Below are positions 2,891-64,000 of a stretch of 64,000 nucleotides of DNA, piece after piece; position 1 is the first letter of the stretch; each line of letters starts with the position of its first letter. The notes under the pieces are model-generated. The model worked only from the letters and a program-made list of their open reading frames with translations. It was not told where the DNA came from and did no database searches. The translations under genes and the position numbers were made by a program. The DNA comes from Armatimonadota bacterium (GTDB lineage: Bacteria; Armatimonadota; Zipacnadia; Zipacnadales; JABUFB01), in assembly GCA_013314775.1 (NCBI GenBank), contig JABUFB010000008.1, positions 725,036-789,035 of the forward strand, written 5' to 3'.

Positions 2891-3724
2891 ATGAAGCTTG
2901 GTTTCATGATCTATTCGCTCAGCCGGTCGCTTGCAGATGGTACGCTGACAGTCCCCAGCGCTCTGGCGCTCATGAAGGACTGTGGCGTGGAGGGCGTAGA
3001 CATCACCGACGGGCACGTCACCGGATACACGGCGGCGGAAGTGCGTAAGATGGCGGAGGATGCGGGAATCGCGGTCTCAGCGTGGATCGGCGGGGGCAAT
3101 CTGACCACCAATGACCCGGAGATCCGCAAAGCATCGCTGGATACCATCCGCGCGCTCATTGACAAGTCTGCGGAAGCGGGCACCCGGAACCTGCTGGTCA
3201 CAACCGGTGGCTGCGCGCCCGATCAGGACAAGGCCGAGGGCCGGCGCAATGTGGCAGCCGGGCTTGCGGAAGTACTGCCGGTGGCGAAAGCGGCCGGGGT
3301 TGTGCTGTCCATCGAGGACTTCGGCAGCCCGGTTGCGCCGTACCAGAACTCGGCCGAATGCATGGAGACCTGCGAGCTTGCCGGCCCGGACCTGATGATG
3401 ACCTATGATTCCGGCAACATGGTTATGGCCGACGAGGACCCCGTGGAGTTCCTCCTGGCAGTCAAGAGCCGACTGGCCCATGCCCATGCAAAGGATTGGG
3501 AATTGCTGCCGCCGGACGCCGAACGCGGGCTCACCTCCCGGGCAGGAAAAAAGTATATCGGCACGGTCGTGGGCGCCGGGGTGCTGGACTACCCGGCGAT
3601 CATCCGTACGCTCAAGACCCTGAACTACACGGGCTACCTGTCCTTCGAATATGAAGGCACAGGCGACCCGGTGCAGGCTGCACGCGAAGGCACGGCATAT
3701 CTGCGCGATCTCATGGCAGACTGA
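2891..3724 (+). CDS. Sugar phosphate isomerase/epimerase (xylose-isomerase-like TIM barrel, AP-endonuclease-2 fold)
   Basis: 277 aa with the family's typical layout (GVEGVDI..., HAHAKD metal-site-like motif). Begins 10 nt after the DegT stop, suggesting operon coupling. Confidence 0.75.
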   Translation: MKLGFMIYSLSRSLADGTLTVPSALALMKDCGVEGVDITDGHVTGYTAAEVRKMAEDAGIAVSAWIGGGNLTTNDPEIRKASLDTIRALIDKSAEAGTRNLLVTTGGCAPDQDKAEGRRNVAAGLAEVLPVAKAAGVVLSIEDFGSPVAPYQNSAECMETCELAGPDLMMTYDSGNMVMADEDPVEFLLAVKSRLAHAHAKDWELLPPDAERGLTSRAGKKYIGTVVGAGVLDYPAIIRTLKTLNYTGYLSFEYEGTGDPVQAAREGTAYLRDLMAD

Positions 3725-3747
3725 CTCGCGGCTTGCCAACCGGACAA

Positions 3748-3775
3748 GGCGCCCCGCGAGGAATCGCGGGGCGCC
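3748..3775 (+). terminator. GC-rich hairpin terminator candidate after the isomerase gene (12-bp perfect stem GGCGCCCCGCGA / TCGCGGGGCGCC with a GGAA tetraloop)
   Basis: Perfect inverted repeat read directly from the sequence, 24 nt downstream of the stop. No U-tract follows, which is common in high-GC genomes. Confidence 0.5.
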
Positions 3776-3885
3776 TGCATTGGGGCCAGTGTCAAGAGTC
3801 TGCGTCACGGGGGCGATCGGATTGGCAGGCGATCTGAGGGGGTAAAAGGATGTTTCAGCCCACATTACACTCAGGAAAGGCAACC

Positions 3886-4503
3886 ATGAAACGCAGGCCT
3901 CTCGCCGGCTTCACACTCATCGAACTCCTGGTCGTCATCGCGATCATCGCGATCCTGGCAGCCATTCTCTTCCCGGTTTTCGCGCGAGCGCGGGAGAAAG
4001 CCCGGCAGAGTTCCTGCCTGTCCAACCTGAAGCAGATCACCCTCTCGCTACTCATGTACGCCGACGACTGGGACGAGACCCTTCCCTACTACCAGCGGCC
4101 GTGGGGCTACGCGTGGTACGACGACATCATCCCGTACATGAAGAACCGGCAGATTCTCGTCTGCCCCAGCAAGACCGACTGGAACCCCAGTGCCCCCACC
4201 CACAAGACGGGGTACGGTCTCAACGAAACCGTCTTCCCTTCGGGCAATGGCTCGCCGTGGCCGGTCCCGCCGATACCGCTGAGCGCCATCCAGAGCCCAT
4301 CGGAGACCATCGCAGGAGCCGACAAGAACCAGGGGAATGTGTACATCGTCGGGCTGTCTTTCTCGGGTTCGACTGCCTGGCCGTACAATGTGGACACCCG
4401 ACACAATGACGGCGCGAACTTTGCCTTCATGGACGGGCATGCCAAGTCCATGAGTAAGGGGGGCACGTGGTCGACGAGCAACACCATGTGGGACCTGTAC
4501 TGA
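3886..4503 (+). CDS. Prepilin-type N-terminal cleavage/methylation domain protein with a C-terminal H-X9-DG motif (DUF1559-like pseudopilin-type protein)
   Basis: Leader MKRRPLAG followed by [44 protein letters not shown]-terminal [16 protein letters not shown] matches H-X9-DG. ATG 3886 is preceded by GGAAAGG. Confidence 0.9.
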
Positions 4504-14460: not shown

Positions 14461-17400
14461 TCAGTCGAACAGGCTGACGATTGCGCTGACGACCCAGAAC
14501 GAGTCACGGAGGGTGCGCCAGAGGTCTCCACGTGCCGGTGCGCGCGGCGGGACATAGAAAATGTCGCCGGGCTTCACCTTGACCGGGTCCGGCACCTTCC
14601 CCTGCCGCAGTTTGGCGAGGTTGATCTCGGTGTGTTCCGTGGTCCCGTCGGGACGCTTCCGGATCATGATCACGCGCTGTTGAGCGCCCGGCGCGAGGGC
14701 AGCGCGGCTGACAATGTCCATGATGCCCCATTCCGGGTCCAGCGGATACGGCCCCGGACGCCCCACGGCGCCCAGCACGTAGATCTCGTCCATTGCCGGC
14801 ACAACCACCACATCGCCGGGCTGCAGGTCCATGGTCTGATCCAGCGCACCCTCGTCCTGCAGGAGCCTCAGGTCCCTGTAGATCGGCTCCTGATCCGGGC
14901 GGTACACGGTCACGCGGGTCAGATCGGCAGTGGCGAGGGGCTGCATGAGCGTGACCACTCGCAGCAGGTCGCGGTTGGCCTTCTCGCGGATATTCACGGC
15001 GCCATTGCGCTGCAGGGCACCGAGGACCATGATGTTATTGACATCGTCCGTCGGCACATAAACCAGATCGCCGGGCTGGAGTTCGAGGTTCTGGGTCATG
15101 TCGCCCTCTTCGACAAGGGCGCGGTAATTGCGGACGATGGCTTCCCCGTCACGATAGATGGTTACGCGGTCCAGGCCGCCTTCGGGATTGGGTGAGGCCA
15201 GAGGCAGCAAGCGTACCAGGTCGCGCTCCTTCGCTCCGTGGATGCTGATCGCGCCGGGCCTCGCCACCTCGCCCGCGAACACCACCGTTTCGGTCGCCAT
15301 GGGCACGTGTACGATATCCCCCGGCTCGAGCATCATGTTCTGCGACGTGTCGCCCTCTTCCTCGAGCCGCGTGAGGTCGCGGACGATTCTCTCGCCCTTG
15401 CGGTAGACGCTGACCCGCGACAGATCGGCGGTGGGCCGATTCGGCCCCGCGAAGGTGACCGTAGCGAACAGGTCATTGCTGCGCCCGACTTCCTGGGGCA
15501 CAACGCCGGAGCGCATGACCTGGCCGGTGATGATGATGCTCCCCGTGCCAAGCTGGGGCACGAGCACCCGGTCGCCGTCTTCGAGAAGCAGTGTCTGGCT
15601 GGTGTCGCCCTGGTCGAAGTAAGCGCGCAGGTTTCGCACGATCACCTCATCGCCCCGATGGACGGTGACATTGGTCAGATCGGCCATGGGGTCCCAGCCC
15701 GCAGCGGTCACTACCCGGGCGAGATCGCGCTGCTCTTCGGTCACCAATTCGATGGTCCCGCGACGCTGGACGGCGCCGGTGATGAGGACGCTCACGGTGT
15801 CCAGGCCCGGGACGAGAATGCGGTCGCCGGGCAGGACCTCGGCATCCACCGGCACCGGCACACCTTCCTCCACTAGACCCTTCAGGTTGTACACGAACTG
15901 CTCGTCACCCCGGAACACTGTGACTCGCTTCAGGTCCGCATTGGGCAGCGGGCCGGATGCCAGCAAGGTATCCACCAGCCTGCGGTTCTCGGGGTCGGAG
16001 ACCCGCACCTGCCCCGCTCGTTGGACCGCGCCAGTGATGAGCGCCGTCCCGCGGTCGATGGGGATGACCACGAGGTCGCCGTCTTCCAGCTGGAGGGTCT
16101 GCGAGGTGTCGCCCTCGTACAGGTACGCCTGAACGTCGCGGGTGATCTTCTCACCGCCGCGATGCACCGTCACCCGGCGCAGGTCGGCGAAAGGAGCCGG
16201 TCCGGATGCGGCGATGAGCCGGGCAAGGTCCCGGGTATCCTCGTCGCCAAGGGCAAGGACGCCGGTGCGTCCTGCGGCGCCGGCCAGGAGAATACTGTCC
16301 TCGTATGCCGGGACCTTGATGATATCGCCGTCCTCCAGCAGGAAGCTCTGGGACAGGTCGCCGGTCTCGTATAGTTTTTTCAGGTCACGCTTGATCTGCT
16401 GTTCGCCCCGGAAGATAGTGACCCTGGACAGATCGGCGTTGGGCATCGGCCCGGCGAGAGTGACCACGCGCAGGAGATCGCGCTGTTTGTCATCGAAGAG
16501 CTGGATGCTGCCGGATCGGGCGACCGCGCCCATGACAAGGACGGTATGCTCAACGCGCGGCACCACCACCACGTCGCCATCCTCAAGCTGCAGTGAGTAG
16601 GCTTCCAGCCCGGTTTCGATGAAGGCCTTGATGTCGCGCTCCGTGGTATTGCCGCCGCGATGGACCTTGACGCGGGTGAGGTCGGCGTTGGGCAGCGGCC
16701 CGGCAAGGGTAACCAGGCGGGCCAGGTCACTCCGCGGGTCATCCGCAACGGTGAGCAGCCCCGCCTGGGCCACCGCACCGGTGATCAGAATATTGCGCAG
16801 CTCGCGGGCGGGGACCGTGATGATGTCTCCGGGCTCGACATACATGGACTGGGTGCGGTCGCCGTCTTGGATCATCGCCAGCAGGTTGCGGACGATCTTG
16901 TTCTGCCCGCGGTGGACGGTAACGTGTTCGAGATCGGCCTGGGGCAGAGGTCCGGCGGCCAAGATCAGGCTCGCGAGGTCGCGGTCAAGCGTTGGCACAA
17001 GCCTCAGCACTCCGCCTCGGCTCAGCGCACCAGTGAGCATGATGCTGTCTTCGACCACGGGGACGCGGATCATGTCCCCGTCTTCCAGGGCGAGAGTGGC
17101 CTGGCGATTGCCTTCCTCGATGTACGGTTTCACATTGACCAGAATCTGTTTGCCACCACGGCTAACCATGACCCGGGTCAAGTCGGCATAGGGCAGCGGA
17201 CCAGACATGAGGATCAGGCGGCCAAGATCGCGCCAGTCATCATCCACGAGGCGCACGATCCCGCCGCGCTCTACGGCGCCTGACAGAACCACGTTCTCGT
17301 CGATCTCCGGCACAACAATGACATCCCCGTCTTCCACAGGGATGCTGTTTTCCATGCGGCCTTCGTCCACCGCGGCCTGCAGATCGCGGATGATGGTCTC

Positions 17401-18996
17401 GCCATTGCGGTGGATGGTGACGCGTCTGAGATTGGAGCCCGTGCCCGGTCCGGAGACGGTGACGATGCGCAGAAGGTCGTGGTCTTCGTCCCGCGCGATC
17501 TGGAGCACTCCCTGGCGGGATACTGCGCCGGTCACAAGCACGCTGTCAACCTCCCGTGCGGGCACCATAACCATGTCGCCGGGTTGGAGGTCGAGATTCT
17601 GAGACAGGTCGCCTTCGTCCATGAGCGCCTGCAGATTGCGGACTATGGTCTCCTTGCCGCGATAGACGGTGACCCGGGTGAGGTCACTCATGGGGCCCGG
17701 GCCGGCGGTTGTGATGATGCGCAGCAGGTCGCGCTCGGTCACCCCGCGCAGGTTGAAAGTCCCGGTTCGCCCCAGCGCTCCCATGACCAGCAGCGTCTGG
17801 GAGACCCCTTCGGGAATCACCAGCACGTCACCGGGCAGCAGCGAGGATTCATCGGGGGCCTGACCAGCTTCGATGAACCGCTGCAGGTCTACACTGATGC
17901 TCTTGCCGGCCCGGATGATCTCCGCGCGGCTCAGATCCGCGGTGGCAGTGGGGCCGCCGGCGGCTGCCAGGCCCTGCAGGACGGGGATGGGGCTCCCCAT
18001 GCGGAAGACTTGAGGGGTGTTGACCTGTCCGACCACCGAAATGCTGCCGGCCTCGTGCACCACCAGTACATCCCCGCCGCGGAGCACATGGTTCTGGCTG
18101 GTACTGCCGCCCTTGAGCAGCGCGTTCAGGTCGATCTCAAGCGGGTCGGAATCGGCACGCAGGAGGATGGCGCGGGAGCGGTCGGCAATGGGAGAGAAGC
18201 CCTGGGACATGCGCAGGGCGTCAAGCACCCGCACTTCGCGGTCCACGGGGAGCAGGAGACTGCCGGGGGCCTGAACCTCCCCGAGGATCATGACTTCCTC
18301 GCGCACCCGAGGAACATAGACGGTGTCGCCATATTCCAGGCGATGTTCGTGCCCAAGACCGCCTTCACCTCGAAGGCCGCTGCAATCTACTTCGATGGGC
18401 TTACCGCCCGGGTGTGTGAGGCGCACCCGGCGCAAGTCAGCGTACGGGCCGGGACCGGCGGCGGCCACGGCGTCGGTGAGCGTGGAGCCAAAGGGCAAGG
18501 TGACCGCCCCGTTGCGGGACAGTTCGCCGGACACGTACACCTTGCGGATGGAATTGATCTCGTCCACGGTCACCTTGACCGACGGTTTTCGTACGAGCGT
18601 GCTGAGACGTTTGACCAAGAACGCCTCGGCTTCGCGCAGGGTCATCCCGCGCAAGCCGACCTGGCCGAGGAGGGGCATGGGGATGGATCCACCGGGGCCA
18701 ATGCGCGCGGCGGTGGAGAGCGTGGGCTCGTTGAAGACCACTATCTGCACCACATCGCCGGCGCTGAGCCGATAGTCGGTATCCACGGAAAAGCGGGGCG
18801 TGAGGGAGCGCACCGGCCCGGCCCCCGCTGTCCGGGACTTTGCTGAGGAGGCAGCCTGCGCGAGCGCTGTATCGCGGGAGGCCTGGTCGTCTTTGAGACT
18901 TGCCGCACAGGCGGTTCCAGCGCTGCAAGATACCAGGAGGGCGACGAGAAGGGCAACCCTTCCGAAGCCGGCCCTAGACGTGGCCCTGCGGAACAT
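14461..18996 (-). CDS. Giant Wza/KpsD-like polysaccharide export protein: signal peptide, N-terminal Poly_export (PES) domain, then about 16 tandem SLBB (soluble-ligand-binding beta-grasp) repeats
   Basis: Signal peptide MFRRATSRAGFGRVALLVALLVSCSAGTACAAS. PES domain YRLSAGDVVQIVVFNEP...LGQVGLRGMTLREAEAFL. About 75-aa units recur (DL.RV.V.RG...IVRNL.AL..EGD.SQN..L.PGD.V.VP....SVLVTGAV.R.G). GGGAGG lies 7 nt upstream of ATG 18996; the 45 codons upstream of this ATG in the ORF track have no RBS. Confidence 0.85.
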   Translation of the reverse strand: MFRRATSRAGFGRVALLVALLVSCSAGTACAASLKDDQASRDTALAQAASSAKSRTAGAGPVRSLTPRFSVDTDYRLSAGDVVQIVVFNEPTLSTAARIGPGGSIPMPLLGQVGLRGMTLREAEAFLVKRLSTLVRKPSVKVTVDEINSIRKVYVSGELSRNGAVTLPFGSTLTDAVAAAGPGPYADLRRVRLTHPGGKPIEVDCSGLRGEGGLGHEHRLEYGDTVYVPRVREEVMILGEVQAPGSLLLPVDREVRVLDALRMSQGFSPIADRSRAILLRADSDPLEIDLNALLKGGSTSQNHVLRGGDVLVVHEAGSISVVGQVNTPQVFRMGSPIPVLQGLAAAGGPTATADLSRAEIIRAGKSISVDLQRFIEAGQAPDESSLLPGDVLVIPEGVSQTLLVMGALGRTGTFNLRGVTERDLLRIITTAGPGPMSDLTRVTVYRGKETIVRNLQALMDEGDLSQNLDLQPGDMVMVPAREVDSVLVTGAVSRQGVLQIARDEDHDLLRIVTVSGPGTGSNLRRVTIHRNGETIIRDLQAAVDEGRMENSIPVEDGDVIVVPEIDENVVLSGAVERGGIVRLVDDDWRDLGRLILMSGPLPYADLTRVMVSRGGKQILVNVKPYIEEGNRQATLALEDGDMIRVPVVEDSIMLTGALSRGGVLRLVPTLDRDLASLILAAGPLPQADLEHVTVHRGQNKIVRNLLAMIQDGDRTQSMYVEPGDIITVPARELRNILITGAVAQAGLLTVADDPRSDLARLVTLAGPLPNADLTRVKVHRGGNTTERDIKAFIETGLEAYSLQLEDGDVVVVPRVEHTVLVMGAVARSGSIQLFDDKQRDLLRVVTLAGPMPNADLSRVTIFRGEQQIKRDLKKLYETGDLSQSFLLEDGDIIKVPAYEDSILLAGAAGRTGVLALGDEDTRDLARLIAASGPAPFADLRRVTVHRGGEKITRDVQAYLYEGDTSQTLQLEDGDLVVIPIDRGTALITGAVQRAGQVRVSDPENRRLVDTLLASGPLPNADLKRVTVFRGDEQFVYNLKGLVEEGVPVPVDAEVLPGDRILVPGLDTVSVLITGAVQRRGTIELVTEEQRDLARVVTAAGWDPMADLTNVTVHRGDEVIVRNLRAYFDQGDTSQTLLLEDGDRVLVPQLGTGSIIITGQVMRSGVVPQEVGRSNDLFATVTFAGPNRPTADLSRVSVYRKGERIVRDLTRLEEEGDTSQNMMLEPGDIVHVPMATETVVFAGEVARPGAISIHGAKERDLVRLLPLASPNPEGGLDRVTIYRDGEAIVRNYRALVEEGDMTQNLELQPGDLVYVPTDDVNNIMVLGALQRNGAVNIREKANRDLLRVVTLMQPLATADLTRVTVYRPDQEPIYRDLRLLQDEGALDQTMDLQPGDVVVVPAMDEIYVLGAVGRPGPYPLDPEWGIMDIVSRAALAPGAQQRVIMIRKRPDGTTEHTEINLAKLRQGKVPDPVKVKPGDIFYVPPRAPARGDLWRTLRDSFWVVSAIVSLFD
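14634..18564 (-). repeat. Divergent tandem coding repeats (about 225 bp period, roughly 16 copies) encoding the SLBB modules of the exporter
   Basis: The (E/P)GD..(V/I)VP and TGAV.R.G motifs recur every 73-78 aa in the translation. The DNA copies are diverged rather than identical. Confidence 0.75.
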
Positions 18997-19200
18997 GTAT
19001 TCGTCCTCCCCAGCTCGAGGTGTCTGCATTGTGCGTCGTCTATAGACTGCAATTCTTGCGGCAATTCGCCGCTGGGGTCGGCAGGCGGGCACAAATGGCG
19101 CCCGAAGCACGCCGCTGATATTATAGCACACTCATTCTGCCTAGACTATAGAGGGCCCCTCTTGGACAAGTCAAGCCCGCCGGCGGGCTACGAGGTCTGT

Positions 19201-24778: not shown

Positions 24779-25552
24779 ATGCGCATACTGATCACAAATG
24801 ACGACGGAGTTCACGCACCGGGCCTGCGGGCACTGGTTTCGGAGCTGACCTCGCTAGGTGAAGTGGTGGTGTTCGCCCCCGAACGCGAGCAGAGTTGCAG
24901 CGGGCACGCAATCACCCTGCACAAGCCCCTGCGCATCCGGGACGCCCGCATTGACGGAGCGGATGTGCGCGCATATTCGGTGAGCGGCACTCCCGCGGAT
25001 TGTGTGGTTCTCGGTTGCCTGCAGGAGAAGGAGCCCTTCGACCTGGTGCTGTCCGGGATCAACGCCGGAGCCAATCTGGGTGAGGAGGTTTTCTACTCGG
25101 GCACCGTAGCGGCGGCGATGGAGGCTTCGCTGCACGGCATCCGCAGTGTCGCGATGTCGGTGACGGCCTACCGCGACTGTGATTTCCGTGCGGCGGCGCA
25201 GTTCGCGACCCGATTTGGGCCGGCCTGCACAACCATGGACCTGCCGCCAGACACCGTGCTGAATGTGAACGTGCCCAGCCTGCCACCCGATCAGATTCGG
25301 GGCGTCCGGGTCACGCGTCTGGGCCGACGGTCGTACGAGAACTTCCTGGAGCGTCGCGAGGACCCGCGAGGCGTGCCCTATTACTGGTTTAGCGGGGAAG
25401 CCCGGGAGGCCGACGCCACCGAAGACACCGACATCGGCGCCACACAGGCCGGATTCATCTCGGTCACGCCCATGCGGTTCGACATCACCGCGTATGAGGC
25501 CATGGGCGGGATTATGTCGCAACTGTCAGCTATGGGGCTCGTGAAGCCATGA
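24779..25552 (+). CDS. surE: 5'/3'-nucleotidase SurE
   Basis: MRILITNDDGVHAPGL... SurE signature. Starts 1 nt after the serA stop. Confidence 0.9.
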   Translation: MRILITNDDGVHAPGLRALVSELTSLGEVVVFAPEREQSCSGHAITLHKPLRIRDARIDGADVRAYSVSGTPADCVVLGCLQEKEPFDLVLSGINAGANLGEEVFYSGTVAAAMEASLHGIRSVAMSVTAYRDCDFRAAAQFATRFGPACTTMDLPPDTVLNVNVPSLPPDQIRGVRVTRLGRRSYENFLERREDPRGVPYYWFSGEAREADATEDTDIGATQAGFISVTPMRFDITAYEAMGGIMSQLSAMGLVKP

Positions 25553-26466
25553 GGCCGTCCTACCTCGAAGCCATCGAGCAAGGGACCTTCGGGGGGAAGC
25601 TGGCAGATCTGAGAGCGCTGCTGTCGCCCTGTCGTCTCTGCCCGCGAGAGTGCGGCGTGGATCGACTGTCTGGGGAAGCCGGGTTCTGCGGCGGATTGGA
25701 CCGGGCCGTTGTGTCGGGGGCAGGCCCGCATTTCGGGGAAGAGCGACCGCTTGTTGGGTCCGGAGGGTCCGGCACGATCTTCCTGGCCGGCTGCAATCTT
25801 GGCTGCGTGTTCTGCCAGAATTACGATATCAGCCACCTGCGCCAGGGCAGGCCGTTGACCTGCGCCGCGCTGGCACAGGTGATGATCGACCTGCAGGCCC
25901 AGGGCTGCCACAATATTAACTTCGTGACACCCACTCACTTCGCGCCCCAACTGGTGGAAGCAGTGGGAGTAGCGGCCAGGCAGGGGCTTCGCCTGCCGCT
26001 GGTGTGGAACTGCGGCGGGTATGAGAGCGTCAAGGCCCTGCGGCTCCTGGACGGCATCGTGGATATCTACATGCCCGATGCGAAGTACTGGGACGCCGCG
26101 GTGGGGCAAGAGCTCTCGGGCGTTCCTGACTATCCGCAGCGCATGCAGGAAGCTATCACCGAAATGCACCGGCAGGTGGGCGACCTGGCCCTTGATCGCA
26201 GGGGTATCGCAACGCGCGGTCTGCTCGTGCGCCATCTCGTGTTGCCTGAGAACCTGGCTGGAACCGCCGGGATAGCGGGGTTCCTTGCGTCACTGAGCAG
26301 GGACACATACGTCAACATCATGGCCCAGTACCGCCCGTGTCACCGGGCTTCGGACTTCCCGCGGATCGCCCGCCGCATCACTGCCAAAGAGTTCCAACAG
26401 GCCCTGACGGACGCCTCGGTCGCGGGCCTGCGCCGGTTCGACGATCGGCCGACGAATCTGGCCTAG
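25549..26466 (+). CDS. Radical SAM protein of the PflX family (pyruvate formate-lyase activating enzyme homologue, COG1313)
   Basis: CPRECGVDR and GFCG motifs; overall PflX-like layout. Overlaps the surE stop (ATGA). Confidence 0.7.
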   Translation: MRPSYLEAIEQGTFGGKLADLRALLSPCRLCPRECGVDRLSGEAGFCGGLDRAVVSGAGPHFGEERPLVGSGGSGTIFLAGCNLGCVFCQNYDISHLRQGRPLTCAALAQVMIDLQAQGCHNINFVTPTHFAPQLVEAVGVAARQGLRLPLVWNCGGYESVKALRLLDGIVDIYMPDAKYWDAAVGQELSGVPDYPQRMQEAITEMHRQVGDLALDRRGIATRGLLVRHLVLPENLAGTAGIAGFLASLSRDTYVNIMAQYRPCHRASDFPRIARRITAKEFQQALTDASVAGLRRFDDRPTNLA

Positions 26467-39643: not shown

Positions 39644-39990
39644 TTGGTGGAGGCGGCGGGAATCGAACCCGCGTCCGAAGAGAGGAACGACACTGCGTCT
39701 ACGAGCGTAGCGGCCGATTCGATCTCGCCGTGGCTTCCCTGGTCGCCCGGTATCCCCGGCCAGCCCGAATTTGGTTCCCGCGTCCCTTAGCGGGCGTTTG
39801 GGACGTCGGTATCCAACCCAGTTGATGTCTCATCCGAAGCGGGTTGGCTCGCCCCGGGAGACATGGCTACGTTAAGCAGCCAGTGCCAGTTCGTTGTTGG
39901 CAGTTATTCTTTTCCCGCGTTTTACGAGACTCGGGGATCTCGGCTCGCAGCCTTGCCTTTCCTGTCTCCCCGTCGAAACCAATCGCCCCC
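39644..39990 (-). ncRNA. ssrA: Transfer-messenger RNA (tmRNA, SsrA), 347 nt, tag peptide (A)NNELALAA
   Basis: Minus-strand sequence GGGGGCGATTGGTTTCGACGGGG...CTCGTAAAA...AATAACT GCC AAC AAC GAA CTG GCA CTG GCT GCT TAA...GGACGCGGGTTCGATTCCCGCCGCCTCCACCA. Acceptor stem carries the G3-U pair. T-arm and encoded CCA are present. Very similar in layout to E. coli ssrA. Confidence 0.95.
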
Positions 39991-48185: not shown

Positions 48186-49790
48186 TCACGGCGCGTTCTC
48201 AGGCCGCTTGCCAATGGCTTCTGCCTCGGTTGCTGTCTTCACTTCAACCGGCCGAGCCCGCGCGCCTACCTTCACGGACAACGGGTCAAGCACCACCAGA
48301 TCATCCACAGTGAGACCCTCGAGTATCGCCGTGCCCTCATCCGTGCGCGGGCCGGGAAGCACCGGGCGCCGCCGGATGTGTCCGCCTTCAACAAGAAGCA
48401 CGTATGCCTCCTGCCCCACGCGCACGAGGCACGCTTCAGCTACCGCCGGGAGCTGCCGGTCCGCATCCACGATGATGTCGGCAAGAGCGGGCTTTCTGCC
48501 TTCCACTGCGTCGGCGCTCGCGTTCAGTTGCAGTGTAACGGTGACCACTTCCCGCTCGTCACCGGGCTCAGGCACTTCACTCACCGTGGCTTCGAAGCTC
48601 TCGTCTGGCGAACCGCGCAGCGCGACGCGTGCGGTCTGGCCGAGACGGATGCGCGCTGCATCCCTCGCCGGGACCTGCACGCGGGCGACGGGTGGTCTGG
48701 CTTCCGCGATCGTGAGCACCACTGATTCGGCGCTCACGAAGTCGCCCTCTTGCCGCAGGACCTCGGTGATAATGCCGTCGAAGGGCGACTTGACGTCAGT
48801 TGTCCGGAGGGACGCGTCGATCTGGTCGCGCAGGTTCTCGGCACGTTCCAGGCGCTCCAGGGCAGCCTTCAGGCGCTCGTCCAGGGCCTGCCGACGCTTC
48901 TCCAATATGTTCGGGGCAGGCTCAGGCCCATCTGTAGACTGCTGCTCGCGCAGGGCGGCGACATAGCGCGCTTCGGCATCCTCCAGCGCGCGCCGGGCCT
49001 TCTCGAGCTCCTCGCCCAGCTCCCTCCTCGCGCGGGACCGCAGGGCATCTGAGCGCTCCTGCGCCGCGGCCAGGCCCCGCTTCGCGGCTTCGAGCTTCCG
49101 CGTGGCACGGTCCAGATCAAGCTGAGCCTGGGCCAGGACTTCAGGTTCCTTCTTCCCCTCGGTCATCAACTGCCGGGCGTGGTCGCGCAGCTTCGTCATT
49201 CGGTCCACGTGGGCCTGCTCGATCTCCAGGCGACTGCGGGCGCTCTCAAGCTCCTTCGTCGCGTCCTTCATCTCGCGCATGGCATCCCGGGAATCCGACG
49301 CTTCCTTGGCGAGACGGGCGAACTCCTCGCGGAGGCGCCGCACCTCATTCCGGGCCTGTGCAAGTGTGTCGGTGGCTGCCAATTCCGGCGTGCTGTCGGG
49401 TTCACGCTCGATGGCTCGTCGCACCGCGTCCAGTTCAGCGCGGGCATCCTTGACCACGGCTTCAGCACGCTCCAGGTCTCGAGCGCCGCTCTGGGAACCA
49501 AGCCGCGCGATGACCTGGTTCGCGGACACTTCGCTGCCCGGTGTGACCAGCATCTGCACAATGATGCCTGGGTCGTGCAAGGTCAGCTCAACCTGCTTCG
49601 GGCCCAAGACGACGCCGTCCACAGAGAGGATTTCCGGCGCCAGGGTCATGCGCGGGCGAATGACCTCCACCGGTGCGGGACGCGCCACTGACCAGAGCGC
49701 GGCGCCTGCGGCGAGGATGCCGATAATCGCCCCGACGAGCAGCCAACGCCGGGTACGCGTGTCGTATGACGGCGGGGTCTCGGGCGTCAT
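48186..49790 (-). CDS. HlyD-family secretion / efflux periplasmic adaptor protein (membrane fusion protein) with a long coiled-coil
   Basis: N-terminal TM anchor RRWLLVGAIIGILAAGAALWSV. Long coiled-coil (REEFARLAKEASDSRDAMREMKDATKELESARSRLEIEQAH...). C-terminal beta-barrel/lipoyl-like segments. Start could instead be TTG 49931. Confidence 0.7.
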   Translation of the reverse strand: MTPETPPSYDTRTRRWLLVGAIIGILAAGAALWSVARPAPVEVIRPRMTLAPEILSVDGVVLGPKQVELTLHDPGIIVQMLVTPGSEVSANQVIARLGSQSGARDLERAEAVVKDARAELDAVRRAIEREPDSTPELAATDTLAQARNEVRRLREEFARLAKEASDSRDAMREMKDATKELESARSRLEIEQAHVDRMTKLRDHARQLMTEGKKEPEVLAQAQLDLDRATRKLEAAKRGLAAAQERSDALRSRARRELGEELEKARRALEDAEARYVAALREQQSTDGPEPAPNILEKRRQALDERLKAALERLERAENLRDQIDASLRTTDVKSPFDGIITEVLRQEGDFVSAESVVLTIAEARPPVARVQVPARDAARIRLGQTARVALRGSPDESFEATVSEVPEPGDEREVVTVTLQLNASADAVEGRKPALADIIVDADRQLPAVAEACLVRVGQEAYVLLVEGGHIRRRPVLPGPRTDEGTAILEGLTVDDLVVLDPLSVKVGARARPVEVKTATEAEAIGKRPENAP

Positions 49791-50008
49791 GGGGACTCTC
49801 GCGCGGGATGAGTGAGCGCCTGCGGACCTGTGCAGATAGTACTCCACGCGGGGAGAGACGGCAACGGAGAAGCGAAGCAGGCTGGAAACGCGCAGTACAG
49901 GGTTTGTGGGAGTGTTCTGACCCGCTGCCAAGTCTCCCCTCCGCTCAGGCGTAGTTTTGCGGCACGTTGGCTGCTTATCTTGCGGACGTTACAAGCACCA
50001 CCCGTCCG

Positions 50009-51190
50009 TCAGAACCTCGGGTTCGGCCCGACCACTTCCGGGCGTTCCTCGGCCAATTCCTTCGCCATCGCCTTCAGGCGCGCATCCGCGTGCTCGAAGA
50101 GCATCCTGTATGATTCGCAGAAGTAGCTCGGGCCGTTGATAGTGCCGAGGCCGGTGAGCCGGTGTCGCTGACAGCCACCGTGGCACTGGCCGAACCAGGG
50201 GCAGTCCTCGCACCCGCACCCTGTCCGGGCCTTGTCGAACCGAAACTGCATGAACTTCTCGGAGAGCGCGATCTCTCGCAGCGGTGTCTCCATTACATTA
50301 CCCAGACGGTATTCCGGCTCCACGAAAAAGTCGCAGGGATAGACGTCGCCGTTGTGCTCGATGAGCAGATAGTCCGCGCACGTCCGGCGCATGTCGCACG
50401 ATGGGCACTCGTGGCCGAGATAGACCATAAGCAGGTCGTCCATCATGCGCACGTAAGTTCGCGGTGCTGATTCCGCTTGCCAGCGGTCGAAAATGGTGCA
50501 CAGGAACTCGCCAAACTGTCGTGGGGTGCAGTTGTACGGACAAAGCTTCCCCGTCTCCGGATCGCGCTCGATGCACGGGATGAACTGCAGATAGCGGAAG
50601 TTGTGCTGCATATAGAAGTCGTAGATCTCGTCGGCCTTGTCGCCCGAGTATGCGGTGACCATGCACAGGATGTTGAACTCTGCGCCATTTCGGTCGAGTA
50701 TTTCGGTGCTGCGCATGACCCGGTCCCATGTAGATTCGCCGGTGGGCGTGCGGCGGTAATGGTCGTGGATGTGCTTCGGGCCGTCGAGACTCACACCGAT
50801 GAGGAAGCTATACCTTCGGAAGAACCGGGCCCACTCATCATTGATGAGCATGCCGTTGGTCTGCAGGCCGTTGGCGATGTTTTGGCCAGGCCGCGCTTTC
50901 TGAAGCTGGACAGCCACCACGCTGCGAAAGAAATCCACACCGAGAAGTGTGGGTTCACCACCTTGCCAACCGAAAGAGGGATTGTCGCCAGACATCTCCA
51001 TGTACTCACCTATGAGCCGGTGCATGACCTCGCGCGACAGCCTGTGGCCGCCGCCGGGATAAATCGCGTGTTTCGGCAAGTAGAAACAGTACTCGCAGCG
51101 CAGATTGCAGTCAGGTCCGGCGGGCTTGATGAGCAAGCTGAGACTGCGCAGGTAGGCTTCGGGGTCGGTGATGCGGATGTCTGTGTCCAT
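50009..51190 (-). CDS. Radical SAM / SPASM-domain maturase of the anaerobic sulfatase-maturating enzyme (anSME) family
   Basis: CNLRCEYCFY (CxxxCxxC) and GGEPTLLG motifs. C-terminal Cys-rich SPASM region (CPSCDMRRTCADYL...CDFF...CGCEDCPWFGQCHGGC). ATG 51190 = MDTDIRITDPEAYL.... Confidence 0.8.
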   Translation of the reverse strand: MDTDIRITDPEAYLRSLSLLIKPAGPDCNLRCEYCFYLPKHAIYPGGGHRLSREVMHRLIGEYMEMSGDNPSFGWQGGEPTLLGVDFFRSVVAVQLQKARPGQNIANGLQTNGMLINDEWARFFRRYSFLIGVSLDGPKHIHDHYRRTPTGESTWDRVMRSTEILDRNGAEFNILCMVTAYSGDKADEIYDFYMQHNFRYLQFIPCIERDPETGKLCPYNCTPRQFGEFLCTIFDRWQAESAPRTYVRMMDDLLMVYLGHECPSCDMRRTCADYLLIEHNGDVYPCDFFVEPEYRLGNVMETPLREIALSEKFMQFRFDKARTGCGCEDCPWFGQCHGGCQRHRLTGLGTINGPSYFCESYRMLFEHADARLKAMAKELAEERPEVVGPNPRF

Positions 51191-51875
51191 GAGCGCGGGT
51201 ATGCCTCGTGGGGTCCCGAAATGGGGGTGACCGCTTCCGGGCCGGTGGTTATAATATGGGCCATAATACCCACACCGGCCCCCGCGAAGCAACCGGGGGA
51301 GGGTGGTCATGTGGCAGGGGCCCCATCCGCCCATCATGGGTCACGCCGGGAGAAGCGAAACACACGGAGGGCGCTGCACTGTCGGCGTCTATGCCCTGTC
51401 GCCGCCGTGAAACCCCGGTGGGGCCGTCCGTATGCAGCCAGGGGCGGGCGCCCCTGGAATCAGGTGTACGCGACCGCAGAGACGCGAAGCCCCAGCGGGC
51501 AGACAGGAACCGCTGCTCATCTGCCGCCCCCGTTGGGGGCTGACGTCGGACTGCAACCGAGGACGGAGCGCGCGTCATCAATACGGTTGTGTTCGCGGGA
51601 GCGCTTTGCCCCGCATGAGTTGGACACACGTGTGCTCATCGTTCACCTGGAGTTCGAGGGACTCGGTGACTGACTCGGCTGACACTTGAGCCGCCCACCC
51701 CGCCCCGGAGATAACATGGCGCGAATTGGCAAGAACAGGTATGTCTATCCACAGGCACTGATCCCATCCCGGGGTCAGTGCCTGCTTCCGTATGCCTGAT
51801 CGGGGCCGTGCACGGGCCCACTTCGCGACCACACCGGCGGCTTTCCCCGCCTCAAACTCACAGGAGCAATACGTG

Positions 51876-53078
51876 ATGACCCCCGAAGCCCAACTCGAGA
51901 TCCTGGCCCGCAATTGCGTGGATTTCCACACACGCGAGGAACTGCTGGACAAGCTGAAGGAAGGCCGCCCGCTGCGCATCAAGTACGGCGCCGATCCCAG
52001 CGCGCCCGACCTGCACCTGGGTCACAGCGTGCCCTTGTGGAAACTGCGCGAATTCCAGGAGCTCGGCCACCAGATCGTGTTCATCATCGGCGACTTTACC
52101 GGGATGATCGGCGACCCCAGCGGCAAGTCCAAGACTCGCCCCATGCTCACGCGCGAACAGGTCGAGGCCAATGCGAAGACTTACGCCGAGCAGGTGGGGA
52201 AGATCCTGGATGTGAGCAAGTGCGAGATTCGCTACAACAGCGAGTGGTTCAGCAAGATGACGACGGCGGAGTTCCTGGCGGTGGCTTCGAACTACACCAT
52301 CGCGCGCATGCTGGAACGCGACGACTTCTCCCTGCGGATGCGGGACGAAGTGCCCATATCCATGCTGGAACTCATGTACCCGCTGGTGCAGGCATACGAT
52401 TCGGTGGCAGTGCAAGCGGACCTGGAAATGGGGGGAACGGACCAGCTTTTCAACTTCCTTGTGGGTCGGGACATTATGCGCGCTTACGGCCTGCCGCCTC
52501 AAGTGGTCATGACCTGGCCGCTTCTCGTGGGCACCGACGGCAAGGACAAGATGAGCAAGTCACTGGGAAACTATATCGGGATCGCCGAAAGCCCGGACGA
52601 AATGTTCGGCAAGGTCATGTCGATCCCGGACAGCGCCCTTGCCCAGTACTTCCGGCTGATCCTCAACCGCAGCAATGCGGAAATCGCGGAGATGGAAAGA
52701 GCCATCGAGGCCGGCGCGAACCCCCGGGATTTCAAGGCCGAGCTGGGTCGGCAGATCGTAGCGATCTACTACGACGCCGCTACCGGTCAGGCCGCTAGTG
52801 ACGAATTCGACCGCGTCCATGCCGAGCGCCAGCTGCCCACCGATATGCCCGAGCTGGACGTGTCGGGCGAGCTTGAGAATGGGGCGCTGTGGATCGTGAA
52901 ACTCCTGGTCATTGCCGGCTTTGCCCAGACCAACGGAGAAGCGCGGCGGCTCGTGCAGCAGGGCGGAGTCAAGATCAACGGCGAGGTCATCAACGACGAG
53001 ATGGCCCAGGTGTCACCGAAAACAGGCGACGTCCTGCAGGTAGGCAAGCGCCGGTTCGCCCGGATCCTGGTCGGTTAG
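51876..53078 (+). CDS. tyrS: Tyrosine--tRNA ligase
   Basis: HIGH-type motif (DLHLGH), KMSKS motif, C-terminal S4 domain. AGGAG RBS lies 9 nt before ATG 51876. Confidence 0.95.
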   Translation: MTPEAQLEILARNCVDFHTREELLDKLKEGRPLRIKYGADPSAPDLHLGHSVPLWKLREFQELGHQIVFIIGDFTGMIGDPSGKSKTRPMLTREQVEANAKTYAEQVGKILDVSKCEIRYNSEWFSKMTTAEFLAVASNYTIARMLERDDFSLRMRDEVPISMLELMYPLVQAYDSVAVQADLEMGGTDQLFNFLVGRDIMRAYGLPPQVVMTWPLLVGTDGKDKMSKSLGNYIGIAESPDEMFGKVMSIPDSALAQYFRLILNRSNAEIAEMERAIEAGANPRDFKAELGRQIVAIYYDAATGQAASDEFDRVHAERQLPTDMPELDVSGELENGALWIVKLLVIAGFAQTNGEARRLVQQGGVKINGEVINDEMAQVSPKTGDVLQVGKRRFARILVG

Positions 53079-62173: not shown

Positions 62174-62409
62174 ACCCGGGCTGTTCCGGCAGCGATGATC
62201 AGCAGACTTCGGTCATCGCGCAGGCGCCGTTCCTCGCCGTGCGTTTCCCGATTCCCCGTGCCCATGAAGTTCGCGAAAAAAAGCCGGCGCGAAGGAGTGA
62301 ACTTCGCGGGAATGGTACACGTCACTCGTCCTTAGGGACTGGTGGATGGCGCTTGCGCGTCATCTGTCCTGCATGCCGCCTGCAGGCGGCTGACTGGGGG
62401 TCGAAATGC

Positions 62410-63111
62410 ATGAGACGCGGGTTCACGTTGATCGAGCTGTTGGTGGTGATCGCGATTATCGCGATTCTGGCCGCGATACTCTTCCCGGTCTTTGCGCGCG
62501 CCAGAGAGAAAGCCCGGCAGGCAAGTTGCTCATCGAACCAGAAACAGATCGCATTGGGCATCCTGATGTACGGGCAGGACTACGACGAAGCATTCCCGGG
62601 TTTCTACTACAAGGCAACCACGGCTGATTGGCCGCTGTTCATCTGGATTGACGCGGTCAAGCCCTACGTGAAGAATGAGCAGATCTTCCGCTGTCCCAGC
62701 GGCAATGACAGCACCCTCACCGGCCCATCCACCAACTACGCGGGCACCACGATCACCACTTCCTACGCCGTGAACCGATACGTCTGCAATGGGGGGCGCG
62801 GAGCATTCGACAACCGCATCGGCCAGATAACCTACCCGGCACAGACCTTGCTCACCTTCGACGCCATTCGAGCTTCGCGCTGGTGTGCCACGCCGATGGG
62901 AACCGGAGGCAGCCGCGGTGATGACTGCTACGGCCGCCCCGCCGGGATCATCGAAGTCGCTGGTGGCTCATTCACCGTCGGGCAGGACTTCGGTCTTCAC
63001 AATGAAGGTGCCAACATGTCCTTCTGCGACGGCCACGTGAAATGGCAGAAGAGCGGATCGTGGGAATCGTACGCGAAGCATTACACCACTTACTGGCAGA
63101 AGACGCGCTGA
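62410..63111 (+). CDS. Prepilin-type N-terminal cleavage/methylation domain protein with a C-terminal H-X9-DG motif (second DUF1559-like protein)
   Basis: MRRG|[44 protein letters not shown]-terminal [16 protein letters not shown]. Confidence 0.9.
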
Positions 63112-63625: not shown

Positions 63626-64000
63626 ATGGGAGCACCAACCCGTCTGCTGGTCATCGGTATCGACGGCGCCGACTTCATCCTGATGTCGGAATGGTTGGCG
63701 GGGGGGCACCTGCCGAACCTCGCGAAGCTTTGTGAATCCGGACGCCTCCTTCCTTGCAGTTCCACACACCCCCCTGTCACCGCGCCCGCCTGGACCACAG
63801 CATTCACCGGCTGCAATCCGGGCAAGCATGGGCTGTATGATTTCTGGGATTTCAGCTTTCCCAACCGGCGGCCATGGTGGACTGAGCCCAGACGGTGCCC
63901 CAGCCTGTGGCGCATCCTGTCGGAAGCAGGGCTTTCCTGCGGCCTGGTGAACCTGCCGATGAACTTCCCGGCCGAGGCGATCAATGGTGTGATCATCTCG
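63626..64000 (+). CDS. Alkaline-phosphatase-superfamily protein (type I phosphodiesterase / nucleotide pyrophosphatase, PF01663-like), 3'-truncated by the window edge
   Basis: MGAPTRLLVIGIDGADFILMSEWLAGGHLPNLAKL...HPPVTAPAWTTAFTGCNPGKHGLYDFWDF.... The N-terminal metal-site Asp/Thr pattern (GIDGAD, TAPAW) is typical. The ORF runs off the window end. Confidence 0.7.
   Translation, partial: MGAPTRLLVIGIDGADFILMSEWLAGGHLPNLAKLCESGRLLPCSSTHPPVTAPAWTTAFTGCNPGKHGLYDFWDFSFPNRRPWWTEPRRCPSLWRILSEAGLSCGLVNLPMNFPAEAINGVIIS

Follow-up and report, generated by a model that had tools for sequence, protein, structure and literature searches.

A candidate leader peptide of tyrS next to an anaerobic sulfatase-maturating enzyme gene in Armatimonadota

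Leader-controlled synthetase genes and the locus under study

In Firmicutes, the tyrS gene is controlled by a T-box, and the E. coli thrS gene provides an example of synthetase autoregulation through tRNA-like operators. Ribosome-arrest leader peptides, such as TnaC (tnaCAB) and SpeFL (speF), act near their stop codon. In addition, leader-peptide attenuators are known 5' of pheST, trpS, and leuS, and some leader peptides come without obvious terminators (PMC1262725). The present study concerns a 64-kb stretch of Armatimonadota DNA (hereafter the window, that is, the whole stretch analysed; G+C about 63%), in which the genes of a HlyD-like adaptor and of a radical SAM/SPASM enzyme (hereafter the maturase) are followed by a 685-bp interval (51191-51875) and by tyrS, whose ATG lies at 51876. 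An earlier note, made from the letters alone, had taken the enzyme and the adaptor for the core of a ribosomally synthesized and post-translationally modified peptide (RiPP) locus of the sactipeptide/ranthipeptide type, and had supposed that a precursor peptide or a regulatory RNA might be hiding in the interval. Its coordinates and calls for the two genes, as well as the limits of the interval, are borne out here. With a probability of roughly 0.68, the stretch is rather made of three independent things, namely an anaerobic sulfatase-maturating enzyme (anSME), a HlyD-like neighbour, and an interval endowed with leader-peptide control of tyrS, and contains no biosynthetic locus. The locus flagged as a RiPP cluster is ordinary, and its interest lies in the unannotated leaders of tyrS and cysS.

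The locus is found duplicated letter for letter on two metagenome contigs, and, for the radical SAM gene as for tyrS, the nearest relatives with a name come from Armatimonadota metagenome-assembled genomes (Candidatus Zipacnadia and uncultured Armatimonadia). Orthologous maturase loci, designated below by L-numbers, were retrieved across a range of identities, the comparison loci lying at 58-73% beyond a group at 94-100%. Conservation in the interval was judged against the genes on either side, whose four-fold degenerate sites are 61-73% identical to those of the 94% lineage (L032). The features of its tyrS-proximal part are as follows (window coordinates and strand).

51690-51875 (+): third zone of the interval, the tyrS leader, roughly 185 nt long, 85% identical to the 94% lineage and significantly structured
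51694-51804 (+): conserved structured core of the leader, covariance model R1, 106 bits
51716-51799 (+): upstream open reading frame (uORF) for the leader peptide MARIGKNRYVYPQALIPSRGQCLLPYA (MARIGKNRYVY...), closed by a stop codon, with GGAG 5 nt before its ATG
51728-51748 (+): core G-K-N-R-Y-V-Y, its two Tyr codons occupying 51740-51742 and 51746-51748; distance to the tyrS ATG, 127 nt
51752-51784 (+): hairpin P2, a 14-bp stem CAGGCACUGAUCCC/GGGGUCAGUGCCUG with a 5-nt loop, 3 nt past the second Tyr codon
51836-51851 (+): GGCGGC element, 3' strand of the long-range helix P0, with GAGCCGCC at 51688-51695 (or CCGCC at 51700-51704) as its partner
51862-53078 (+): tyrS, with the Shine-Dalgarno (SD) sequence AGGAG at 51862-51866 and the ATG at 51876, encoding a tyrosine--tRNA ligase of 400 amino acids (aa)

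The product of tyrS reaches 355 bits against TIGR00234, whose cut-off is 113.8, and the identical contigs also call a protein of 400 aa.

A conserved reading frame and a folded RNA in front of tyrS

The third zone is conserved 5' of tyrS in seven lineages (the window, L032, L003, L034, L040, L049, and L127), the tyrosyl-tRNA synthetases (TyrRS) of which are 69-100% identical, and an in-frame, ATG-initiated ORF with the core GxNRYVY is present in all seven. The leader peptides of the six other lineages read as follows.

L032: MARLGKNRYVYPQALIPFRGQRLLPRV, then stop
L003: MRGIARIGRNRYVYL, then stop
L034: MMAPPAKGVARIGKNRYVYPQALLPPCGVSA, then stop
L040: MIGLPHNGRNRYVY, then stop
L127: M(RDM)ALTGTNRYVY, then stop
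L049: MARLGSNRYVYAP…, continuing

The conservation is that of a translated frame. Across the ten codons that end with the second Tyr, the pairwise codon differences amount to 78 synonymous and 51 non-synonymous ones, while shifting the frame gives 21:117 and 13:126; within the core GxNRYVY the count is 58 to 17, the non-synonymous changes being found only at x. Gly is written GGC, GGU, or GGG, Arg AGG, AGA, CGG, or CGA, and Val GUC or GUU, with further variants in the ten codons before the hairpin (GCG/GCC/GCA and CGA/CGC), and the Tyr codons are invariant except for the third position, which is U or C only (UAU/UAC). The distance from YVY to the stop codon varies with the lineage, between none at all and over 50 codons. 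The uORF lies 127-184 nt 5' of tyrS and on its strand, even where AP_endonuc_2, YbjN, or DegT genes stand between tyrS and the maturase; as the leader stays with tyrS when genes intervene, the element belongs to tyrS. The supposition of a hidden peptide or regulatory RNA was right in substance, the interval containing both a conserved uORF and a structured leader; the gene to which they belong is tyrS and not the maturase. In the same line, the absence of any convincing ORF from the interval, as claimed previously, holds in so far as the candidate ORFs have no Pfam domain and no genome-type coding signature (their G+C is flat over the three codon positions, compared to about 0.65/0.43/0.80 in real genes), and fails for the ORF at 51716-51799, whose frame is conserved in seven lineages. 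A protein-database search with the peptide profile returned the cluster itself only.

At the RNA level, the covariance model R1 finds exactly one copy 5' of tyrS in each of the seven lineages and none elsewhere in 599 kb, including about 75 tyrS loci from other phyla; no copy was found 5' of other genes in this search. The segment 51690-51880 (+) folds with z=-3.27, none of 200 shuffled sequences folding as well. All seven lineages have hairpin P2, which shows compensatory changes and whose loop measures 5-8 nt. It begins 3-5 nt past either the last Tyr codon or the stop; in L127 the inner P2 stem is entirely rebuilt. Besides, a CGCCGCC sequence just 5' of the uORF pairs with a GGCGGCG located some 35-90 nt 5' of the tyrS ATG to form P0, which is predicted in the minimum-free-energy folds of six of the seven lineages and shows A-U to G-C covariation in its outer pairs. 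For P0 and P2 together, 90% of the cells are paired, compared to 33-56% in slid controls, and pair changes on both sides number 6 versus 0-2. The GGCGGC element also forms a local hairpin, P4 (GGCGG-CUUUCC-CCGCC), just 5' of the tyrS SD, which is not conserved in L049 and L127, so that an alternation between P0 and P4 is not universal among the leaders. The possibility of a T-box or other Rfam leader 5' of tyrS, raised in the earlier note, finds no support: no Rfam family was obtained at E<=1 over 4 kb, and only miRNA noise at E<=10 over 341 nt.

A similar arrangement precedes a second synthetase gene of the clade. The cysS genes of L034, L123, and L003 are preceded by a conserved uORF with the motif …[KR]-S-G-G-[PL]-[PA]-A-C, as listed below.

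L034, 8196-8330 (-): MRFGRSGGPPAC, then stop
L123, 5275-5410 (-): (V)GARKSGGLAAC, then stop
L003, 5987-6125 (-): …GKSGGPAACLGP…

These uORFs vary synonymously at third positions and keep a fixed UGU Cys codon, directly followed by UGA in two lineages and then by a GC hairpin; the cysS of L124 has no uORF of this type. Two synthetase genes of one clade, tyrS and cysS, are thereby preceded by a uORF ending in the cognate codon beside a hairpin.

As judged from sequence comparison, the conserved Tyr-codon uORF and the folded RNA most likely regulate tyrS by leader-peptide control. The features expected of an attenuator that are found here comprise a cognate-codon ORF on the same strand, a conserved frame with an in-frame start, and helices beside the regulatory codons; a terminator/antiterminator with a U-tract or a sequestor covering the SD was not found among the seven leaders. 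Several further points weigh against this reading. The seven sequences are few for covariation statistics, none of the seven leaders has an intrinsic terminator (hairpin and U-tract), and folding with a stalled ribosome leaves the accessibility of the tyrS SD unchanged in six of them. A clear SD for the uORF is seen only in the window/L032 lineage, the regulatory (Tyr) codons are only two, and G, N, R, and V are conserved as well, which simple codon starvation does not need. Finally, the leader is absent at fairly close tyrS genes, namely L044/L045 (79%), L128 (68%), and L129 (63%). A model of SD sequestration was rejected, as forcing the ribosome footprint to be unpaired gave no consistent gain of SD accessibility for tyrS or cysS. 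Some of the leaderless genes show sequences of their own. L044 (2900-3000) and L045 (630-730) have a CATAAT promoter-like box and a short ATG frame (MTAAFPHARRLLY) that continues in frame into tyrS, which could represent an alternative tyrS start or a different leader; in L129, the region 5' of tyrS (about 3720-3880, +) contains a GC-rich unit of about 45 bp repeated three times in tandem (…GAGCGGGCG(G/A)GACGCCC…TT(G/A)CGCGTTGT(A/G)G…).

Under leader-peptide control, a shortage of charged tRNA-Tyr would make the ribosome stall at the leader Tyr codons. P2, with its start 3-5 nt past these codons, would lie within the ribosome footprint, and the stalled ribosome would cover the 5' arm of P2, keep the P0/P1/P2 domain open, and raise tyrS expression. 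With an ample supply of tRNA-Tyr, the ribosome would finish, the leader would refold, and tyrS expression would decrease. Candidate readouts are Rho-dependent termination (as in tna or speF), translation initiation, and mRNA stability. The conserved G, N, R, and V residues hint, in addition, at a contribution of the nascent chain.

Compared to the T-box (RF00230), the leader shares the gene and the proposed logic, i.e. sensing of the charging state of tRNA-Tyr, but it has neither an Rfam match nor a T-box sequence and is conserved as a translated frame. With TnaC and SpeFL it has in common a conservation that extends over the last 7-10 residues ahead of the stall/stop site, a stop codon directly after these in some lineages, and the lack of an intrinsic terminator, which would fit a Rho-dependent readout. 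It differs from them in showing no sign of a small-molecule effector or of Rho, and in keeping cognate codons, for which codon starvation suffices. That GxNRYVY is a new ribosome-arrest-type peptide, within a clade-wide Armatimonadota system of tyrS and cysS in which the uORFs close with the cognate codon beside a stop and a hairpin and which works without intrinsic terminators, is a tentative proposal which we consider possible and still doubtful; if true, such a system, acting for example by Rho blocking or by remodelling of a closed leader, would be a peptide-built functional counterpart of T-boxes. In layout, the leader resembles the E. coli pheM-pheST and the Streptomyces trpS and leuS leaders (PMC1262725), where a cognate-codon ORF on the same strand is also followed by conserved hairpins. 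In contrast to these, the tyrS leader has two regulatory codons set in a fixed GxNRYVY, no U-tract terminator, a stop that sometimes comes directly after the last Tyr codon, and a long-range closing helix.

The element could also be thought to act purely as an RNA or a DNA operator (riboswitch- or T-box-like, or a tRNA mimic, bound by a ligand, tRNA-Tyr, or TyrRS) in which the ORF is incidental. The significant structure of the leader and the covariation of P0 and P2 would fit this view, two UAY triplets could serve as specifier-like codons, neither the start position nor the SD of the uORF is conserved, and the thrS operators are a precedent. Nevertheless, we hold it to be unlikely: in just one reading frame, the ten codons that precede the hairpin vary overwhelmingly by synonymous changes, which constraint at the RNA level does not predict, an in-frame AUG is kept in every lineage, no T-box or other Rfam family matches even at E<=10, and loops varying from 5 to 8 nt speak against a dimeric DNA operator. 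Hardly credible, in turn, is the idea that the conserved …NRYVY… peptide is a substrate of the neighbouring anSME-like enzyme, bearing for example a three-residue cyclophane-type crosslink on Y-V-Y. Cyclophane-forming SPASM enzymes do act on aromatic-X-X motifs and resemble anSME (as sub-threshold matches), and the peptide adjoins the enzyme in the window, L032, and L003. It is encoded, however, on the opposite strand, keeps its distance of 127-184 nt to tyrS despite one or two intervening genes (L034, L040, L127), and has no equivalent near the maturase orthologues of other contexts (L037, L122, L124, L126); in two lineages it stops at YVY after only 11-14 aa, so that a follower is missing and there is hardly a leader to be recognized, and the analogous cysS uORF with its Cys codon fits the sensing of cognate codons rather than RiPP chemistry.

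Leader-peptide control of tyrS would, if confirmed, extend this mode of regulation to a further synthetase gene: no Tyr leader peptide was found described in the literature, the tyrS leader and its cysS parallel were previously unannotated, the former is absent from Rfam, and both belong to an uncultivated phylum with no prior knowledge of synthetase gene control. The compact GxNRYVY-and-hairpin motif is well suited to direct in vitro testing.

The maturase and its HlyD-like neighbour

On the other side of the interval, two genes are encoded on the opposite strand.

50009-51190 (-): anSME, radical SAM and SPASM domains, 393 aa, assigned by TIGR03942 and the alignment with anSMEcpe
49836-49864 (-): promoter-like TTGCCG-17-TACTAT of the HlyD-like gene, hexamers read from the sequence
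48186-49790 (-): HlyD/membrane-fusion-protein (MFP)-like adaptor, 534 aa, Pfam HlyD_3 and HlyD_D23, TIGR01730 at 103.3 versus a cut-off of 94.9

By sequence, the maturase is an anSME, a conventional enzyme in an unconventional neighbourhood devoid of sulfatases. It scores 410.1 bits against the NCBIfam equivalog for anaerobic sulfatase maturases (TIGR03942, cut-off 349.45, model positions 2-362 of 363), and its residues 16-379 align over the full length of the Clostridium perfringens enzyme anSMEcpe (PDB 4K36/4K37; E=2e-77, phmmer, 4K36_A). The three radical SAM cysteines (CX3CX2C) of anSMEcpe are all identical in the maturase, and so are the eight auxiliary-cluster cysteines (Cys255/261/276/330 and Cys317/320/326/348), Tyr24, and Asp277 of the Cys276-Asp277 pair; the roles of these cluster ligands, of Tyr24, and of the catalytic Asp277 are reportedly those described by Goldman et al. 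2013. The only Pfam domains are Radical_SAM and SPASM, and no RiPP recognition element (RRE) or other N-terminal recognition domain was found with Pfam, residue 16 aligning with residue 3 of anSMEcpe. The enzyme thereby resembles the anSMEcpe/AtsB/ChuR group (PDB 4K36-4K39), with 393 versus 370 aa, no added domain, and the clusters, Tyr24, and Asp277 kept; unlike classical anSMEs, it does not adjoin a sulfatase and sits in Armatimonadota housekeeping synteny. About one in two anSME homologues at 45-52% identity, including several labelled Armatimonadota, has a C-terminal SEC-C motif (PF02810), which is absent from the window maturase and its closest relatives.

The 3' neighbour of the maturase changes with its identity to the window enzyme.

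100-94% (L001, L002, L032, L033): HlyD-like gene
73% (L126): GDSL lipase, convergent
70% and 69% (L003 and L123): CN_hydrolase
68% (L034): PF01663
65% (L122): 262-aa protein, no assigned family
63% (L124): cysS, convergent
61% (L037): glnA, convergent

What persists is a series made of tyrS (with or without AP_endonuc_2, YbjN, or DegT), the maturase, a variable gene, a gene resembling a diaminopimelate (DAP) dehydrogenase gene, cysS, and tatA. From the changing 3' neighbours and this lasting housekeeping synteny, the maturase is identified as a stand-alone, vertically inherited gene among housekeeping genes in this Armatimonadota clade, and its link with the adaptor as recent and local.

The adaptor has an N-terminal transmembrane anchor, a very long coiled coil (about 235 residues), and a C-terminal barrel-sandwich/beta-barrel. 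Apart from the identical contigs, only the 94% relatives retain its gene, and it evolves faster than its surroundings (84% aa identity to the 94% lineage, compared to 94-95% for neighbouring genes). In the 218-bp gap between the two genes, the first 130 nt after the maturase stop cannot be aligned with L032, whereas the roughly 85 nt preceding ATG 49790 are nearly identical; conservation being limited to the latter, the adaptor start is fixed at this ATG, and the stretch up to TTG 49931 is unconserved relative to L032 and has no coding G+C periodicity. The position of the TTGCCG-17-TACTAT element in the sole conserved part of the gap suggests that the adaptor has a promoter of its own. One point against this independence is that no terminator separates the maturase from the HlyD-like gene and that the two are co-directional, so that they may be co-transcribed. 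The adaptor shares its anchor, coiled-coil hairpin, and barrel-sandwich and beta-barrel with HlyD, MacA, and EmrA, TIGR01730 being just over its cut-off, but its coiled coil is unusually long and no ABC, RND, MFS, or outer-membrane partner is encoded in the window. More precisely, no sulfatase, ABC, or RND gene adjoins the two genes, as the earlier note had stated, nor does a C39 gene, and Pfam annotation finds none of these across the whole window; no outer-membrane factor gene was found there by the same annotation. The MFP domains of a tripartite efflux or type I secretion system are hence present, and its inner-membrane transporter and outer-membrane factor are absent from these 64 kb. On sequence grounds, the HlyD-like gene is a recent, lineage-specific neighbour, an orphan MFP with no detectable functional tie to the maturase.

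As an anSME, the maturase presumably oxidizes Cys or Ser of C/S-x-P/A-x-R motifs to formylglycine in sulfatases that would be encoded elsewhere in the genome. The alternative offered in the earlier note, an orphan sulfatase maturase, fits these data: TIGR03942 is passed, the anSMEcpe residues are kept, and the gene stands alone in the clade. The motif scan has its positive control in relatives of about 40% identity (Desulfobacterales, Enterobacterales), where it detects a Cys-type sulfatase (…CAPSR…; CxPSR) adjoining the maturase. Telling against sulfatase maturation, the same scan, together with Pfam, found no intact C/S-x-P/A-x-R sulfatase in the window or in about 15 Armatimonadota loci, a negative that covers the window and these loci, only parts of each genome being visible; the sole sulfatase trace is a fragment of 109 aa in L040 (2134-2463, -). 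This fragment, limited to the N-terminus of PF00884 (25.6 bits) with a degenerate formylglycine motif (…NSITARTRA…), lies 5.5 kb from a maturase orthologue of 58% identity and could represent the remains of a sulfatase. The truncated enzyme at 63626, which had been named as a possible substrate, is an unlikely one: it is a PF01663 phosphodiesterase (63626-64000, +, about 12 kb from the maturase) with a Thr nucleophile motif, T-A-P-A-W, and not Cys/Ser-x-P-x-R. Another PF01663 gene, encoding 259 aa, is located 61 bp 3' of the maturase in L034 (4288-5067, +), and also in L035 and L036.

Two other assignments of the enzyme have to be weighed together. That the maturase and adaptor form the core of a RiPP cluster, with a precursor hidden in 49791-50008 or 51191-51875, is very improbable and already largely refuted. 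It is true that SPASM enzymes of the same fold include many RiPP maturases (CteB, PDB 5WGG, PapB, SCIFF, DarE/DynA, GrrM/XyeB), with partial similarity to profile models (5WGG, E=3e-21) and sub-threshold matches to DynA (204 bits), GrrM, DarE, PapB, and SCIFF; besides, the two genes are co-directional without a terminator between them, and small ORFs are easily overlooked. The enzyme nevertheless misses every RiPP-maturase threshold, the models for DynA, GrrM, DarW/DarE, YhhB, PapB, XyeB, SCIFF, CcpM, RumMC, and others scoring 2- to 10-fold below their cut-offs (PapB 107/340, SCIFF 97/425, CcpM 89/500, RumMC 60/720), whereas the anSME equivalog is passed, and it has no RRE, N-terminal extension, precursor, or co-conserved transporter or protease. 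No orthologous locus of 73% identity or less keeps HlyD beside the maturase, seven different genes (58-73%) taking the place of the adaptor, and no ABC transporter or peptidase is present in the window. In neither gap does the maturase strand hold a Cys-rich or conserved small ORF or one with a coding signature, and both the 130 nt past the maturase stop and a 370-nt spacer of the interval are unalignable even with the 94% relative. Rather unlikely, too, is a maturase serving a non-sulfatase target, either another formylglycine-dependent enzyme of the alkaline-phosphatase superfamily or another Cys/Ser protein. The lack of intact sulfatases from the window and the roughly 15 loci speaks for it, as do two PF01663 genes, one that directly follows the maturase in the 68% lineage and one that the window carries at a distance of 12 kb; but both PF01663 proteins have Thr at the nucleophile position (PTITPVN; VTAPAW), the adjacency is confined to one lineage, none of the anSME catalytic residues is missing from the enzyme, which also exceeds the equivalog cut-off, and only a small fraction of each genome is visible.

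The proposed maturation of distant sulfatases by a stand-alone anSME raises the question of the role of such an enzyme in Armatimonadota lineages without a visible neighbouring sulfatase, and the literature on Armatimonadota sulfatases yielded nothing usable. For genome mining, the case calls for caution: a SPASM enzyme flanked by a HlyD-like gene and by a long, seemingly empty stretch mimics a RiPP cluster that dissolves under comparative genomics, and the locus is not worth prioritizing for natural-product discovery.

The rest of the interval and other genes of the window

The two maturase-proximal zones of the interval differ in conservation.

51191-51320 (no strand): conserved AT-rich block with back-to-back promoter-like boxes, 82% identical to the L032 lineage
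51321-51689 (no strand): lineage-specific, fast-evolving non-coding spacer, 44.5% identity and 196 gap columns relative to the 94% relative

In the first, a promoter scan gave a single hit on the plus strand (GTGACC-17-TATAAT, 51227-51255, 10 of 12 positions), and TATTAT is read on the minus strand at 51268-51263, in agreement with putative divergent, back-to-back promoters. An imperfect 21-nt inverted repeat (51239-51281; GGGCCGGTGGTTATAATATGG / CCATAATACCCACACCGGCCC) spans both AT-rich boxes by the maturase start and is shared with no lineage but the 94% one; it could serve as an operator or be a mere reflection of the two divergent -10 boxes. No operator 5' of the maturase is conserved across lineages, the AT-rich block itself being unconserved beyond the L032 lineage.

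The interval had also been described as rich in hairpins, which is correct for its tyrS-proximal third only, since the fold energies of 51191-51400 (-) and 51400-51690 are not unusual (z=-0.59) and at chance level (z=-0.96), respectively. The three hairpins singled out do exist, the first being CCAGGGGCG-GG-CGCCCCTGG, a 20-bp palindrome that had been transcribed with one C too many. This palindrome (51438-51457) and a 6-bp GCCCCC/GGGGGC stem are contained in the spacer. Perfect stems of at least 9 bp number two in the interval (51438-51457 and 51752-51784) versus 0.06 expected (P=0.006), and those of at least 6 bp five versus 3.2 (P=0.2), GCCCCC/GGGGGC being at chance level. A REP or MITE repeat (repetitive extragenic palindrome or miniature inverted-repeat transposable element) was rejected as an explanation of the spacer, for blastn and pattern searches of the window and the loci detected no further copy of either the palindrome or the spacer; a pseudogene remnant of the AP_endonuc_2 or YbjN genes that stand between tyrS and the maturase in relatives was likewise discarded, tblastn giving no match in 51191-51875. 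The spacer of the 94% lineage harbours an unrelated inverted repeat with perfect 20-bp arms, GGAGCGGGCTTGCCCGCGAC … GTCGCGGGCAAGCCCGCTCC (L032, 3540-3760; also in L033, L042, and L046), and short resembling stretches 3' of tyrS in L044, L045, and L049 suggest a REP-like element.

Elsewhere in the window, the sole gathering-level Rfam match lies away from the leader and is a tmRNA gene (39645-39990, -; RF00023, 183.9 bits), for which ARAGORN gives the tag peptide ANNELALAA followed by a stop. A second, unrelated radical SAM protein of 305 aa is encoded directly 3' of surE (25549-26466, +), and a protein of 1556 aa (14461-19131, -) with a Poly_export domain and multiple SLBB domains resembles a polysaccharide export component. 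Finally, two pilin-like proteins combining N_methyl and SBP_bac_10 (DUF1559) are encoded at 3850-4503 (+) and 62239-63111 (+), and the same family is found in the related loci L034 and L124.

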